DNA of 64,000 nucleotides. It comes from a virus. The position numbers were made by a program, and so were the translations under genes. Shown here in pieces: positions 19,169 through 24,670 of this stretch. Where the stretch lies: positions 32,001 to 96,000 of IMG/VR virus record IMGVR_UViG_3300037541_000804. One strand, given 5' to 3'. The notes under the pieces are model-generated. The model was not told the DNA's origin. It made no database searches and saw nothing but the letters and a program-made list of their open reading frames with translations. Each line of letters opens with the position of its first letter. Within the stretch, counting starts at the first letter, position 1.

Positions 19169-20140
19169 TTACTTGGACAATAAATTAGCCATTTGCGTGG
19201 AGTCCATTTTGCCGCCGTTTTTCTTCAATTCTTCGGCCAAATCTATCTTTTTAGCTGTAGGATCGTAGTATTCCAAGTCTTCTTTTGTCGCGCCGACAAC
19301 ACCAACAGTTGAGTGTTTGCTTCCTTTTGTTGGGTTTTTGTCTCTTTTCTTTTGAGTTTCAACAAAATCGAGTAGTTCTTTTGGCGATTTTCTTATGGAG
19401 TCGGGAATGTTTTCGACATTTTGCAAGATATTTAGGAACATTCTGCCGTAAGCTAGCATCTTTAGTTGATAAATACTCAAAGAAACAACCGAACGGCCAA
19501 AAAAGTCAAACGGTTTCTCTACTTGCGACAAATATAGGGAAAAAGCATCGCTTAACACTGCCTCTTGGATTTTCTCGTCCGTCATTCTGTCCGTCAAGCC
19601 GTAGTATTCTTTCATAAACGGCGAAAGGTCGTCAATTTGATTAAAATCTTCCTGCGAGTATTTCAATTCCCGACATTCCCTATCGGAATACAGGATATTA
19701 CGAATAAACTCTTCATTGGAGAACGAAACAGCATAATCTTCCGCCGTTTTTCCAAAGGGCGCGATGGTGCAAATCAATTCGCGCCGCTTGTTCAAAATTA
19801 CGTTTAGCTCTTTAGCTTGGGCGTCGATTGTTTTTTGAGTTGAGTCTTTTTGGCTTTTTAGTTCTAAGGCTTTTTTAGTATTAGAAAGAGTTTCGATGTA
19901 GCTTTTCTTTTCCTCAATATCAAGTTCGTCCTTGTCCGTCCAGAGGTTGCTCTTTTTTAGCCGCTCAAGGCATTCTTTCTCTGTCGGGACGGATTTTAAG
20001 GCTATCTTTTTTTGCTTTTCGAAAGCATCCGCCAAAACCTTTTGATCACGCAAATTGATATGGCGCAAGTAAACGGCCCCATCCAAAATAGGAGTGAGGC
20101 CGTCAAATATTTCGCAAATTAATGGCGAAAAATCACTCAT
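19169..20140 (-). CDS. probable tail assembly chaperone
   Basis: Charged helical protein directly upstream of the TMP, with its ATG overlapping the 3' end of the previous gene. Confidence 0.5.
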   Translation of the reverse strand: MSDFSPLICEIFDGLTPILDGAVYLRHINLRDQKVLADAFEKQKKIALKSVPTEKECLERLKKSNLWTDKDELDIEEKKSYIETLSNTKKALELKSQKDSTQKTIDAQAKELNVILNKRRELICTIAPFGKTAEDYAVSFSNEEFIRNILYSDRECRELKYSQEDFNQIDDLSPFMKEYYGLTDRMTDEKIQEAVLSDAFSLYLSQVEKPFDFFGRSVVSLSIYQLKMLAYGRMFLNILQNVENIPDSIRKSPKELLDFVETQKKRDKNPTKGSKHSTVGVVGATKEDLEYYDPTAKKIDLAEELKKNGGKMDSTQMANLLSK

Positions 20141-20903
20141 CAGACTTCTCTTCAACCTTTTCGTCCACCTTCTCGATGCTTGTCATACGAGAGGCGAATT
20201 CTTCGGCGGTAATACCCATATTGTAGGCATAAAGGGCGCTGGTTAGGGCGATTTTTTCTTTTGCGGCGGAATAAACAGGTGTTGGGGCTTCCTCTAGTTC
20301 AAAGTAGAACTTTTCCTGATCTTCAAAGTTTGCACCTTCGAACATTTTTTGCGGCTCATCATTTTCGCGTTGGAAGTAGATGAAATTGACGGCAAACCAA
20401 GTGGTAAGATCGGTTTCAGCTTTAGATTCGGCGGTCAAAGCAAAGAGAGATGTTTTGTACTGGTGGAGTTCAATGATCTGATTCTGCAAGAGGGAGAATT
20501 CGTCCTTTAGTTTTTTGATCTTTTGCTTGACGGCTTTCTTGGGTTGAGTGCCAGCGACAATCAGTTCTTCTTGGACTTCGTAGAGGCGGGTCTGGACTTT
20601 GGCCAATTCTTTAGAGCTAGAATCGGAGATGAGTCCGCCGTTGTCAGAATACTTGTTCAAAAGCATGGCCCGCGTCATGAGTTTCTTCTCTTGAATGTAA
20701 TAGTTTACGCGCATAGCGTAAAACAGTTCGGCCTCGCGGGTGTCAATTCGAGATGGTTTCTTGAATAGGAACTTTACAGGAGATTCGACCGTTTCGGTTG
20801 TTTCGACAATAGCTTCCTTGCCGTCAACGGTTTGGGGCTTTTTGACCTGCTTTTCGGTCTTTTCGGTGACGGTGAATTCGTATAGGGGAGTGATTTTGGC
20901 CAT
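20133..20903 (-). CDS. probable tail assembly chaperone
   Basis: Position upstream of the TMP, coiled-coil content, and a CGTTAAT late-motif variant upstream. Confidence 0.5.
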   Translation of the reverse strand: MAKITPLYEFTVTEKTEKQVKKPQTVDGKEAIVETTETVESPVKFLFKKPSRIDTREAELFYAMRVNYYIQEKKLMTRAMLLNKYSDNGGLISDSSSKELAKVQTRLYEVQEELIVAGTQPKKAVKQKIKKLKDEFSLLQNQIIELHQYKTSLFALTAESKAETDLTTWFAVNFIYFQRENDEPQKMFEGANFEDQEKFYFELEEAPTPVYSAAKEKIALTSALYAYNMGITAEEFASRMTSIEKVDEKVEEKSDE

Positions 20904-20922
20904 GGTTTATTAATATTAACGT

Positions 20923-21207
20923 TTAAAGACAGAAAGACACTTCATAATTATCTATTTCTAAATCAGACTCACGAATAACATCGTTGCCCGAATCTAGGAT
21001 TTTCTTACGAAGGCGTTGGTATTTCTCTTTTGAGAATGGATTTCCTACGACGAGAATAGGTATATATTCTTTTGGTAACTTATCGAGAAGATTTCCATAA
21101 AACTCATCATGCGAAGCCTTGACTTCTCCTAGAATTTCTAAGTATTCTTTGAATAACGCGGTAATAAAACGACGCTGCCTTTTTTGAAGAGAGTCCTTTG
21201 CTTGCAT
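20923..21207 (-). CDS. hypothetical late protein
   Basis: ATG at 21207 with GTGTAAC at 21233-21239. Confidence 0.55.
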   Translation of the reverse strand: MQAKDSLQKRQRRFITALFKEYLEILGEVKASHDEFYGNLLDKLPKEYIPILVVGNPFSKEKYQRLRKKILDSGNDVIRESDLEIDNYEVSFCL

Positions 21208-21262
21208 GTGGAAATCCTTAATCCTGAAAAGCGTTACACGCAAAAGGGGTGTAATTCCTTAT

Positions 21263-22572
21263 ATGGCACGCAAAGAAAACATCCTCCTTTAGGTGAAGGA
21301 TGAATTTCCGCTAAATATTTAACAATTATCGAAGATTTTGATAAATCCAGTGTAATATATGATGAGTGACGCATTGTGCTTACAAATTCCGCATCTATCC
21401 AACGCCAGAACAGGAAACTGTTTTGCGGCAGACAATCGGCTGCTGCCGATTTGTCTATAACTGGGCGCTGGCTCAGCGGCGCGAGGCGTGGGTAACAAGC
21501 AAGAAAAGCGTTTCTTACAATGCAACGTCTAAAGGTTTGACGGAATTGAAGGAATCGCCCGAGAAAGCGTGGCTCAACAGCGTCTCAAGCGTTTGCTTGC
21601 AACAAAGTTTGCGCAATCTTGATTCGGCGTTTGTAAACTTCTTTAAGAAACGAGCTTGCTATCCAGTTTTTAAAACACGAAAGAATGGTGGAAACGCACG
21701 TTTTCTAGACAACGCCTTCCGAATTGACGGAAACAATCTTTTTCTTGCTAAAATTAAAACGCCTCTCAAAGTTATTTGGTCGCGCAAACTCTCTGGAGAG
21801 CCAAGTCAGTGTGTTGTTTCGCAAAACGCCAGCGGTCAATGGTTTGCCAGCCTTCTATGTGAAGAGGAAATCTCTAAGCTCCCGCACTCCGACAAAAGGA
21901 TCGGTATCGACTTGGGAATCGAAACATTCGCGTCAACGAGTGACGGGCAGAAGTTTGGACAACCAAAGCGTATTCGTCGCTTGCGCCAAAAATTGGTTCG
22001 CTTACAACGATTGCATTCTCGCAAGCAGAAGGGTTCTAAGAACCGCGAAAAGGCTAGGCTTAAAGTTGCCCGCCTTCATCAGCATATCGCCGACACGCGA
22101 AACGATTTTCTCCACAAACTATCCACCAAGCTCATTCGTGAAAACCAAACGATTGCGCTAGAGGATTTGGCCGTTAAAAACATGGTTAAGAACCGCAAAC
22201 TTTCTCGACGTATAAGCGAGCAAGGCTGGCGGAGTTTCCGAACTATGCTTGAATATAAGGCTGAGTGGTATGGGAGAGAACTACTCATCGTAGATCGCTG
22301 GTTCCCAAGTAGCAAGACTTGTTCTTGTTGCGGGAGAAAAGCCGATCTTTCTTTGAAAGATCGCAAATGGACATGCGAATGTGGGGCCACGCATGACCGA
22401 GACATTAACGCCGCCAAGAATATCCTCGCCGCTGGACAAGCGGTGCCATTTGCCTGTGGAGCAGACGCAAGACCATCGAAGGACTACGTTCTTCGGGGCA
22501 GTCCGCAACGAAGCAGGAAACCCAAGGCGTGAGCCAAGGAATTCACGCCGTTCACGGCGGGGAGTATGTCAA
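21263..22572 (+). mobile_element. non-autonomous IS200/IS605-family (IS1341-like) element carrying tnpB only
   Basis: Left-end hairpin CATCCTCCTTTAGGTGAAGGATG (21280-21302) downstream of TTAT (21259-21262). Right end is GAAT, hairpin CGCCGTTCACGGCG, then TCAA ending at 22572. No tnpA. Confidence 0.85.
21366..22532 (+). CDS. tnpB: TnpB RNA-guided endonuclease
   Basis: AYKFRIYPT...GCCRFVYN. RuvC residues intact (IGIDLG, IALEDL, HDRDINAA), plus a zinc finger (CSCCG...CECG). Confidence 0.95.
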   Translation: MTHCAYKFRIYPTPEQETVLRQTIGCCRFVYNWALAQRREAWVTSKKSVSYNATSKGLTELKESPEKAWLNSVSSVCLQQSLRNLDSAFVNFFKKRACYPVFKTRKNGGNARFLDNAFRIDGNNLFLAKIKTPLKVIWSRKLSGEPSQCVVSQNASGQWFASLLCEEEISKLPHSDKRIGIDLGIETFASTSDGQKFGQPKRIRRLRQKLVRLQRLHSRKQKGSKNREKARLKVARLHQHIADTRNDFLHKLSTKLIRENQTIALEDLAVKNMVKNRKLSRRISEQGWRSFRTMLEYKAEWYGRELLIVDRWFPSSKTCSCCGRKADLSLKDRKWTCECGATHDRDINAAKNILAAGQAVPFACGADARPSKDYVLRGSPQRSRKPKA

Positions 22573-22590
22573 TTAACACAGGCTCAAAAG
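22400..22590 (+). ncRNA. TnpB omega/reRNA; predicted guide TTAACACAGGCTCAAAAG from 22573
   Basis: Established TnpB architecture: the scaffold overlaps the 3' end of tnpB and the right end, and the guide is the flank after TCAA. The 5' boundary is approximate. Confidence 0.7.
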
Positions 22591-22612
22591 GGATGCGATT
22601 AGTAGTCTTGTG
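22573..22612 (+). pseudogene. relic 5' end of another allele of the 22711-23172 gene
   Basis: Reads LTQAQK(+1 nt)DAISSLV, versus LTQAQKNTISGLI in the intact gene. Confidence 0.75.
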
Positions 22613-22710
22613 AAGAAGAAGAGTAATTTGTAATCATTTCGGCTATTTCTAGCTTTAGATAAGGGTCGGTATTGGGGAGGCGCAACTTTACTTAAAGTGT
22701 AATAAATAAC

Positions 22711-23172
22711 ATGGCTATTAGCTACCTGACACAAGCTCAAAAAAACACAATCAGCGGCCTCATAGACTCGATCCATTTAACGTTTGCAGTTGATGTTACC
22801 GCTTTTCAAATAAGTAAGAAAGCCGCTTTAACCGCCGACCCAAGTTTCAACTCAATTTACCGCCAAAACTCAGCGCAAGTTTCTTCCACGGAGCGTTCTT
22901 TAACGTTCAAAGCTCGTATTCGCTACTTAAAAATGGGAGAGGAGCTAATGACAGAATCAGACGGCTCAAATGCTACGAGCATTCAAGGGAGAGTTATTTT
23001 GCCCGTTGGCAGCGTGAAAATGAAAGTGGATAACACTGCTCACGAATTCTTAGAAACGGCCAAACGTGTGGAGATTAGCGGCAAAAGATTCATTGTTAAT
23101 GGCCATGCTCGGGCTATCGGGATGTTCGACAAGTCCCAATACTGGGAATACTTTTTAACGCCAACAGATTAA
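22711..23172 (+). CDS. probable head-closure/stopper (neck) protein
   Basis: First gene of the neck/tail-tube block, beta-rich 153 aa, with GTGTAAT 7 nt upstream of the ATG. Confidence 0.5.
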   Translation: MAISYLTQAQKNTISGLIDSIHLTFAVDVTAFQISKKAALTADPSFNSIYRQNSAQVSSTERSLTFKARIRYLKMGEELMTESDGSNATSIQGRVILPVGSVKMKVDNTAHEFLETAKRVEISGKRFIVNGHARAIGMFDKSQYWEYFLTPTD

Positions 23173-23813
23173 TGGCTCGAAAGTTATCCATCAAACGAAT
23201 CAGTGACTTTATCCGCCGCAAAGTAACGGAAAGCAAAATCGTTCAATTTGCCCTACGAAAAACTATAGAAGCTCGAATCCGTCCTCTTTTCAACCAAATT
23301 CGCCAAGAGATGCTAGAAGAATTTGATAACCACCCAATTACAGAAGAAATCGACATGGGGCCAAAATTCGGCTACGAGTCAAGGTTTTTGGGCGGGTATG
23401 GAGACTTGTTTTCTTTCATAGGTTTTGAGAGAGATGATAATCCAACGAAACCAATTCGAGAGATATTTCGCGGTCTAAGACTGTATTCTGTAACCTCAAA
23501 AGGTCTTGATCACGTTTATGAAGTAAGAAACTATCCTACCGCACAAGATATTTTCCGTATTACACCAATGCCGTGGAAAAAGGGCGCATCTTGGGCCGAA
23601 GGTATTGAAAAAGGCATCTCTGGCTTGGGAAGATACTTAAATATTGAATATCAACAAGGCCGCTCTCAGGCTGGTATCCAAGTAAAAACCAAGAAAAACT
23701 TTCGCCCCGCCTTCCAAACAGCTCCTTATATCACTGAAATAATAAAAAAATATCGCGCCAGATTCTTGGAAATTTCCAATCTAAAATTGCTCGGCATCCC
23801 TAAAACTCCATGA
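23172..23813 (+). CDS. probable neck / tail-completion protein
   Basis: Basic protein lying between the putative stopper and tail terminator. Confidence 0.45.
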   Translation: MARKLSIKRISDFIRRKVTESKIVQFALRKTIEARIRPLFNQIRQEMLEEFDNHPITEEIDMGPKFGYESRFLGGYGDLFSFIGFERDDNPTKPIREIFRGLRLYSVTSKGLDHVYEVRNYPTAQDIFRITPMPWKKGASWAEGIEKGISGLGRYLNIEYQQGRSQAGIQVKTKKNFRPAFQTAPYITEIIKKYRARFLEISNLKLLGIPKTP

Positions 23814-24670
23814 TTCTTCCTCAATTTATTCACAAAGTTACCTCGTCTTTTTATCTTTGGGCGGATCATATTCTCTTGGATAGAGGCCAAGCTTACACAA
23901 ATACAACTGGCGCTTTTACCAATTATACGGACGAAAGACTACCAGATGCGTTTGAAGCGTTTGGTTGCCCACATAAAGAGTGGGTTGCGGATTCTTCTGT
24001 GTCTGGCGCGGTTGTGCCGTCTGGGTTTTATGTCGGCGGGTCTTTTCGAGCTAGGGCCGATTCGTTCAACCTTGATTTTATTAATGGGCGCGTAATTACA
24101 AGCGGGATTAGCACGTCTCAGTCAATTACTGGTTCGTATTCCGTAAAGGACTTCAACATCTATGCCACAAATCAGGACGAGGAAAGTTTAATTGTTGAAA
24201 TGTGCGAAAATTATTCAGCGCAATACAATTCTATTGGCACGGACATTTCCACGCCGTATCTTGCGCCGTATTCCCAAAAAGTTCCCGCGATTTTCATCAA
24301 TACACAAACACAAGAAAACGTTCCTTTTGCTTTGGGCGGAACAGACAATTCTCAAGTTCGCGTCAACATGACGATTTTTTCTAAAACACCCTATGAACTA
24401 GATGGCGTATTAGGACTTTTCGCAGACACAAGTGACGAAGTTTTCAAAGAGTTGCCCCTAGAATCGGCCCCTATGACCGAATGGGGAGAGATTAAAAACG
24501 GCAATTATAATTACAATAATTTGGTAGCCGCAAGCGGAATCTCCAACATATCTATTGATTCCGTCAAAACAAGCAAAGTTTCCGACTCTCTAAAGAGAAG
24601 CTTGAAGACTGAACTGTATATTGGTTTCGCCGATTTTGAACTTTCCCAACCAAGAAACCCTAGAGTTTAA
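23810..24670 (+). CDS. probable tail terminator protein
   Basis: Directly upstream of the tube gene, with a terminator-like VPAIFI...FALGG pattern. Confidence 0.5.
   Translation: MILPQFIHKVTSSFYLWADHILLDRGQAYTNTTGAFTNYTDERLPDAFEAFGCPHKEWVADSSVSGAVVPSGFYVGGSFRARADSFNLDFINGRVITSGISTSQSITGSYSVKDFNIYATNQDEESLIVEMCENYSAQYNSIGTDISTPYLAPYSQKVPAIFINTQTQENVPFALGGTDNSQVRVNMTIFSKTPYELDGVLGLFADTSDEVFKELPLESAPMTEWGEIKNGNYNYNNLVAASGISNISIDSVKTSKVSDSLKRSLKTELYIGFADFELSQPRNPRV

Follow-up and report, generated by a model that had tools for sequence, protein, structure and literature searches.

Why would a phage carry a transposon nuclease gene, with no transposase to move it, inside the start of one of its own genes? 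The question is raised by a tnpB gene in the IMG/VR virus record IMGVR_UViG_3300037541_000804, a genome of 165,329 bp rated complete (here G000). We analyzed bases 32001-96000 of this record, and this whole stretch of 64,000 nucleotides (nt) is called the window. Positions are those of the window unless a genome position is stated, and G and L numbers are our handles for genomes and loci. The tnpB gene interrupts the 5′ end of a gene that we call X, and an intact X follows directly downstream. The answer that we favor, with confidence slightly better than even, is that the locus is a phage RNA-guided home-and-rescue TnpB cassette, its expression, its cleavage activity and its outcome (homing or exclusion) being predicted from the sequence. 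The locus is arranged as follows.

20923-21208, minus strand: divergent gene of 94 amino acids (aa), from the list of open reading frames (ORFs); the same 94/95-aa gene adjoins X in 11 TnpB-free lineages.
21249-21268, plus strand: original GTGTAAT (21249-21255), 7-nt spacer and old X start ATG GCA (21263-21268), collinear with GTGTAAT-N7-ATGGC at orthologous loci.
21269-21349, plus strand: left-end remnant with conserved block, AAAA foot (21276-21279), imperfect hairpin (21280-21302) and spacer, delimited by the three-copy alignment, the flanks of relatives and empty sites.
21350-21356, plus strand: phage gene-start motif GTGTAAT, 9 nt upstream of tnpB.
21366-22532, plus strand: tnpB, 388 aa, GTG start, RuvC triad and zinc finger intact.
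22420-22572, plus strand: omega-RNA scaffold and right end, overlapping the 3′ end of tnpB, with GAAT foot (22539-22542), terminal hairpin and an invariant ATGTCAA ending at 22572.
22573-22590, plus strand: predicted guide, codons 6-11 of the interrupted X allele; L114 and L116 have TTAT followed by its exact first 17 nt.
22573-22662, plus strand: decayed relic of the 5′ part of X, with a 1-nt insertion after codon 11 and then a stop, placed by local alignments to 10 orthologues.
22697-22703, plus strand: second GTGTAAT promoter motif, 7 nt before resident X.
22711-23172, plus strand: resident intact gene X, 153 aa, probably a neck (head-to-tail connector) gene.

A sequence-only reading of the window had described an intact TnpB without tnpA between IS200/IS605 ends, and our searches agreed with it. 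Judged by its residues, the ORF at 21366-22532 is a full-length TnpB with an intact catalytic site, and cleavage is predicted from these residues. Three Pfam domains scored over their cut-offs (PF12323 HTH_OrfB_IS605, PF01385 OrfB_IS605 and PF07282 Cas12f1-like TNB). The chains of the ISDra2 TnpB structures 8EXA and 8H1J matched residues 4-355 with an E-value of 4.6e-75. In an alignment to a PDB TnpB-type nuclease, the RuvC triad (D182/E266/D346) falls in the conserved motifs, and the zinc-finger cysteines are retained. No Y1 transposase (PF01797) was found in the complete genomes G000 and G001 or in four genome fragments, and the control genomes were positive in the same search. G000 has two further tnpB copies outside the window, with 74-77% protein identity to the first. 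The alignment of the three copies set the limits of the element: a conserved left block with the hairpin, GTGTAAT, and conservation that ends right after ATGTCAA, the last four letters of which are the right-end TCAA (22569-22572). Metagenome contigs of the other copies matched through 22572 and diverged immediately after it, which confirms the right boundary. An Rfam scan of 20500-23500 matched no family, the omega-RNA region included.

The junctions themselves were also found in other assemblies. Contigs with zero differences cross the left junction (20700-22303) and the right junction (22005-23281 and 22382-23400) in lake-water runs of three studies, and a wastewater strain that differs at about 1/10 of the letters has the same junctions. 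The wastewater runs are labelled 'RNA-Seq' and are probably DNA, and no RNA data set was among the listed runs that contain the phage. In the four sequencing runs examined, we saw no contig joining across 21263-22572, which would be the empty-site form.

The place of insertion was read from orthologous loci. Homologues of X fell into 12 protein clusters, and DNA was examined for 11 lineages. X lay directly next to the divergent 94/95-aa gene, with no tnpB between them, in 11/11 lineages. The layout of these empty sites was GTGTAAT, 7 nt, ATG GC., three codons and then the guide-homologous sequence. Because positions 21249-21268 of the window are collinear with the 11 TnpB-free relatives, we read them as the old promoter and start codon of X. 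The element does lie within the 5′ end of X, as had been proposed, and these sites place it between codons 5 and 6. They also changed two details of the sequence-only reading. It had joined the two sides of the element as IPY|LTQ; the letters are right, but 21251-21262 are not V-I-P-Y codons, since 21249-21268 is the promoter with ATG GCA. Likewise, the TTAT at 21259-21262, taken for the transposon-associated motif (TAM), is probably not the one used. A junction there is improbable, as it would need a left end that starts by chance with ATGGCA at the exact promoter spacing.

Two pieces are missing from the left junction of the window. Codons 3-5 of X (9 bases, ending in TTAT in most relatives) are gone. 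In other copies, TTAT is separated from the conserved left block by the first 5-10 nt of the left end, and these too are absent here. The simplest account is that one small deletion appears to have removed the TAM, the cleavage site and the tip of the left end; we judge the tip and the TAM deleted because of the synteny with the 11 empty sites and the left ends of other copies. The old promoter now opens a 9-codon ORF (21263-21292, ATG GCA ... TAG) that reads into the left end, and it may add transcription through tnpB.

The guide at 22573-22590 corresponds exactly to codons 6-11 of X. The alleles at this site compare with TTAT and the guide as follows.

L114 and L116: TTAT at the TAM position; first 17 nt of the guide exact (17/18).
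L120: CTAT; the same 17 nt as L114 and L116.
L127: TTAT; 17/18, with a mismatch at position 6.
L121 and G001: TTTT; 17/18.
L109: TTAT; 15/18.
L004: TTAT; 14/18.
L107 (TnpB-free): CTAC; mismatches at 1, 9 and 18.
Resident X of the window: CTAC; mismatches at 1, 3, 9 and 18.

TnpB-free relatives carrying TTAT plus the guide, which had been anticipated, are represented by L114, L116 and L127. No other TAM-flanked near-match to the guide occurs in the G000 genome. Exact 18-nt matches in IMG/VR numbered 22, all in four unrelated contexts without a TAM, and we regarded them as chance.

The relic had first been proposed from its likeness to resident X. The 4/18 mismatches, all of them synonymous, were as described, but the similarity itself was not above chance: an unbiased local alignment of the 60-nt right flank with the 1.4 kb downstream was not significant (z 1.1). 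Instead, the relic is validated by its alignments to orthologues. Against 10 of them, z ranged from 2.4 to 7.7, with 0/300 shuffles for seven, and every alignment starts at nt 16 of X. About 38 nt of the relic are clearly homologous, and probable homology, interrupted by indels, reaches to about 90 nt.

An intact X with its own GTGTAAT downstream was also a correct observation, and so was the state of its target site: the resident allele has CTAC in the place of TTAT and four mismatches to the guide. From these letters, the carrier's own allele of X would not be a target. The further claim that the resident copy had been specifically recoded was not supported. The TnpB-free L107 has nearly the same CTAC-type allele, and capture of a divergent allele by recombination is as likely. 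No relative has anything similar to the stretch that separates the relic from the second promoter. For this reason we favor capture, and the resident 5′ end looks like an already divergent allele joined by illegitimate recombination rather than one recoded in place. We considered whether the second promoter region (22670-22710) is a duplicate of the first; only about 6/18 positions agree outside the motif, and the idea is unsupported. Excess divergence of the 18-nt target among close relatives was considered too and is not clearly present.

The cassette contains a signal of the phage itself. GTGTAAT occurs 30 times in G000, against 13.6 ± 3.2 expected. Fifteen of the 30 copies are followed, 7-29 nt (mostly 7-8 nt) later, by the ATG of an ORF that is 60 aa or longer, compared with 7% of random positions. 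GTGTAAT is a gene-start signal of this phage, because half of its copies closely precede the ATG of an ORF. It is probably a promoter element that gives very short leaders. The motif reported 9 nt before tnpB is real; the 'late' timing ascribed to it is putative. Among close viral relatives of this TnpB, 11/12 have GTGTAAT before tnpB. The motif was found at 0/68 distant viral TnpB loci and at 2/76 bacterial ones. At 21230-21262 and at the orthologous loci, the motif forms a divergent pair. On the minus strand, the 94-aa gene has a Shine-Dalgarno-like AAGGAT and, about 25 nt upstream of the gene, GTGTAAC; the plus-strand GTGTAAT lies only 7 nt upstream of X. This pair suggests near-leaderless mRNAs for many genes.

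That the TAM is TTAT-like was predicted and was found across the copies. In each of the seven copies that bear a left end, TTAT (TTAC in copy 3) precedes the conserved block by 5-10 nt, and TTAT or TTAC also stands at the homologous sites of L011, L013 and an HNH-like ORF of G001. L012 is a clean canonical insertion, in which TTAT, the element and the flank are collinear with the empty site of G000, with no bases gained or lost. In agreement with the IS608 pairing rule, the foot of the left hairpin is AAAA at TTAT sites and AAAG at the TTAC site of copy 3; the combination of AAGA and TTAT in L134 fits the rule less simply. Several copies have no left end (L009, L010, L011, L013 and L016). Copies that bear a left end retain the GAAT foot of their right end; this foot is degraded in 4/5 of the copies without a left end, L011 being the exception. 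The terminal TCAA is invariant.

We found 12 IMG/VR contigs with TnpB at 72-88% identity. Comparatively, the best match among 185,579 bacterial and archaeal species genomes had 55% identity. As far as these sequences go, the TnpB clade is confined to one phage group. Most flanks of the clade contigs match other regions of G000, which is empty at those sites; the contigs are therefore taken as relatives with the element at different positions. The complete genomes G000 and G001 have three tnpB copies each, at non-orthologous sites, and no tnpA. A blastn search of the locus against 50,697 phage records matched only tnpB fragments. Pairwise ratios of nonsynonymous to synonymous substitution rates (dN/dS) were 0.08-0.14, with dS near or above 1 and hence saturated. 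By these ratios, tnpB is under purifying selection. The consensus fold of the omega-RNA from 11 relatives, copies without a left end among them, has 40 pairs, 13 of which are compensatory.

The layout of the window was not unique. In L011, the stop codon of a 384-aa gene is closely followed by a cassette that has no left end, and the last 90 nt of this gene are present twice. The resident gene end is upstream of the cassette, after TTAT; its positions 1-8 match the guide, and only 4 of positions 9-20 do. The relic is the 90 nt after the right end, the first 18 nt of which match the G000 allele at 16/18. To judge from the two sequences, a gene was clearly interrupted near one end, with its function restored beside the cassette, both in the window and in L011. 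Two other loci are suggestive of the same layout. In L009, a small zinc-ribbon ORF about 55 nt downstream starts with a second version of the guide (17/20), a match that is not significant alone. In L013 (1300-2830), the element splits a gene after codon 3 (GTG AGT TAC), and a variant right end supplies an in-frame ATG, so that the downstream gene could be translated with a new N-terminus of five residues. The right flank of L010 had no match in G000.

Other sites of the clade gave some additional observations. The guide of copy 2 (L002, genome positions 111273-112430, outside the window) is the middle of an HNH-like ORF that has no 5′ half. The homologue of this ORF in G001 (L137) has TTAC directly before the homologous 15 nt, 11/15 of which are identical. 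It seems that one selfish nuclease landed in another. In L009 (780-2900), a TnpB cassette and a YopX gene lie between dnaB and dnaG, whereas G000 (L218, genome positions 19500-24500) has a different 360-aa ORF there. This may be a place where mobile nuclease genes tend to insert. We considered the 360-aa ORF as a LAGLIDADG protein, which Pfam did not confirm. The gene for QueC (7-cyano-7-deazaguanine synthase) adjoins the TnpB site of L012 (2775-3437; about 25.6 kb in the genome). The phage DNA may have 7-deazaguanine modifications, which would bear on the ability of TnpB to cut it.

What X encodes was approached through structure. Pfam and PHROGs gave no family for X or its neighbors, and a profile search of metagenome contigs with the X alignment gave no relative. 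An AlphaFold model built from 12 homologues had a predicted local distance difference test (pLDDT) score of 71. Its structural matches were weak (best E-value 3.5e-3), and the top 23 were all neck, stopper, terminator or connector chains of tailed phages. X lies between the tape-measure operon and further conserved, likely structural genes. From the model and this position, it is plausible that X is a virion gene, probably for a neck or connector protein.

Putting these results together, we propose the following course of events. An IS200/IS605-type TnpB/omega-RNA element of a phage-specific lineage would have inserted at TTAT between codons 5 and 6 of X. The function of X would be kept by the complete copy about 140 bp downstream, which has its own GTGTAAT promoter and a divergent 5′ end, most likely recombined in from an L107-like allele. 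The interrupted 5′ fragment would persist as a decaying relic, and because it lies directly after the right end it would template the guide of the omega-RNA. As tnpA is absent and both the TAM and the tip of the left end appear to be lost, the element should no longer be movable by TnpA. With tnpB presumably transcribed from the phage promoter motif, guide-loaded TnpB would cut X of co-infecting relatives that have TTAT and 16-17 matching nt, and CTAC together with 3-4 mismatches would spare its own genome. Repair of the break would use the TnpB-bearing genome as template, so that the cassette and the resistant 5′ end would be copied together (homing with rescue). Divergent competitors would simply be destroyed (exclusion).

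It is also possible, at somewhat less than an even chance, that the case is a general one and that a lytic lake phage lineage hosts a set of RNA-guided home-and-rescue drives. These drives would be independent of a transposase, use phage promoters and sit inside conserved, partly essential genes. Each would replace a gene end with one resistant to cleavage, use the interrupted fragment as a guide template, and spread or exclude by cutting the unprotected allele.

Several observations weigh against the home-and-rescue interpretation. The best-matching alleles (L114 and L116) are found in distant relatives, in which X is 61% identical. For these distant target-bearing relatives, exclusion is likelier than homing. 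The closest sampled relatives have a mismatch in the seed or no TAM, and the sample contains no efficient homing partner. The state of these closest relatives could reflect escape or plain drift, the sample being too small to separate the two. The 'immune' allele is present in L107, which has no TnpB. The guide of any IS200/IS605 insertion matches the uninterrupted allele, and the match alone shows no function at the level of the phage. Stop codons were found in copies of G003 (L133 and L135) and G004 (L129), and some members of the clade are therefore decaying. L012 is a plain insertion without rescue. Finally, the TnpBs of L005 and L008 are 99% identical (dS 0.055) with different flanks and guides, intact left ends and TTAT. 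They resemble ordinary recent transposition, with TnpA presumably supplied in trans, as none is encoded by the phages in our set.

The strongest alternative regards the locus as an ordinary selfish insertion into an essential gene, made by a TnpA of the host acting in trans. The surviving phages would have regained X by duplication or recombination, and TnpB would serve the retention of the transposon or drift to loss. Such retention is an established role of TnpB, which cuts the empty site and so holds the transposon in place. The canonical insertion of L012, the recent mobility of L005 and L008, the decaying copies, the automatic match of guide and empty allele, and the immune-type allele of L107 are all as expected under ordinary insertion. 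We regard this explanation as a serious but minority prospect, with odds near one in three. Retention homing needs excision by TnpA, yet both complete genomes lack tnpA. Several copies without a left end nevertheless keep tnpB intact, dN/dS is about 0.1 and the structure of the omega-RNA is conserved. The phage-type promoter motif is specific to the clade, and no close bacterial source was found. Because of these left-end-less and TnpA-less copies under selection, the clade's promoter motif and the missing bacterial source, ordinary insertion does not seem to be the whole story.

It is unlikely that TnpB has been co-opted for some other task, such as RNA-guided repression or the cutting of host or other-element DNA, with the similarity of guide and X being incidental. 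Such uses have parallels in the nuclease-dead TldR proteins of temperate phages, which act as repressors, and the guide of copy 2 in an HNH-like fragment means that non-virion targets exist. However, the RuvC triad is intact, and the guide continues the interrupted gene by position and matches its orthologues beside a TAM. The phage genome, to which this search was confined, has no other TAM-flanked match. An assembly chimera of a TnpB element and a phage contig, conceivable for a metagenome-derived record with three related repeats, is extremely improbable given the identical contigs over both junctions from three studies and the diverged strain that shares them.

If the home-and-rescue cassette is accepted as the best reading, it can be compared with several known systems. 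The closest in sequence are the ISDra2/IS608-type members of IS200/IS605 (Karvelis 2021; Meers 2023, bioRxiv 10.1101/2023.03.14.532601). The protein architecture and the RuvC triad are the same. The omega-RNA likewise extends across the 3′ end of tnpB and the right end of the element, the flank that follows TCAA serves as the guide, and the 4-nt TAM is the target site of the transposon, foot and TAM covarying in copy 3. Unlike these elements, the present one belongs to a phage without TnpA. Its left-end tip and TAM appear to be deleted in the window, and several relatives lack the left end altogether. Within the element there is a phage promoter motif, its clade is found in one phage group, and a duplicated gene end of divergent sequence keeps the target gene functional. 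The loss of the left end and the capture of a promoter of the host virus document steps in the domestication of TnpB.

TldR proteins, the phage-encoded nuclease-dead TnpB repressors, are also relatives of TnpB that phages retain although no transposase accompanies them, and the neighboring DNA determines their guide. In contrast, the RuvC residues are intact in our case, and the predicted target is an allele of a phage gene and not a host promoter.

Homing by TnpB once the element has been excised is described in the literature. TnpB-driven, TnpA-independent spread of IS605 has been reported in plasmid populations (PMC11870625). A review has 'transposon non-restorative homing' in its Table 1 and treats phages as a theoretical case only (PMC13565253). 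In the plasmid case and in non-restorative homing, as proposed here, TnpB cuts the co-resident orthologous empty site and repair copies the element. The difference is that the present element lies inside an essential-looking gene and has its own rescue copy; our literature search found no report of rescue duplications. The locus and its relatives provide a concrete natural system for the phage-to-phage spread of TnpB that was proposed in theory. They offer defined guides, a defined TAM, natural sensitive and resistant alleles, and a built-in rescue copy.

The free-standing homing endonucleases SegF, SegG and MobE of T-even phages act, in the summary that the same review gives, by intronless homing or localized marker exclusion (Belle 2002, via PMC13565253). 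They share with our locus a nuclease gene beside a conserved gene, a target in the allele of nuclease-free relatives, and a carrier allele protected by sequence differences, and co-conversion or exclusion of competitors is expected in both. Their target is recognized by the protein, whereas here it would be recognized by a guide RNA templated by the relic, and self and non-self are predicted to differ by the TAM and 16-18 nt. If our interpretation is true, RNA-guided nucleases fill the niche of the free-standing homing endonucleases of phages.

The design as a whole has a counterpart in the laboratory. Synthetic cleave-and-rescue or home-and-rescue drives combine, at one locus, an RNA-guided nuclease with a guide that targets an essential gene and with a version of this gene that resists cleavage. 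The cassette in the window likewise has the nuclease, the predicted guide and the putatively resistant copy in one locus. It differs in being natural and viral, and in being built from a transposon and a recombined gene end. If the interpretation is correct, evolution reached the cleave-and-rescue design as well.

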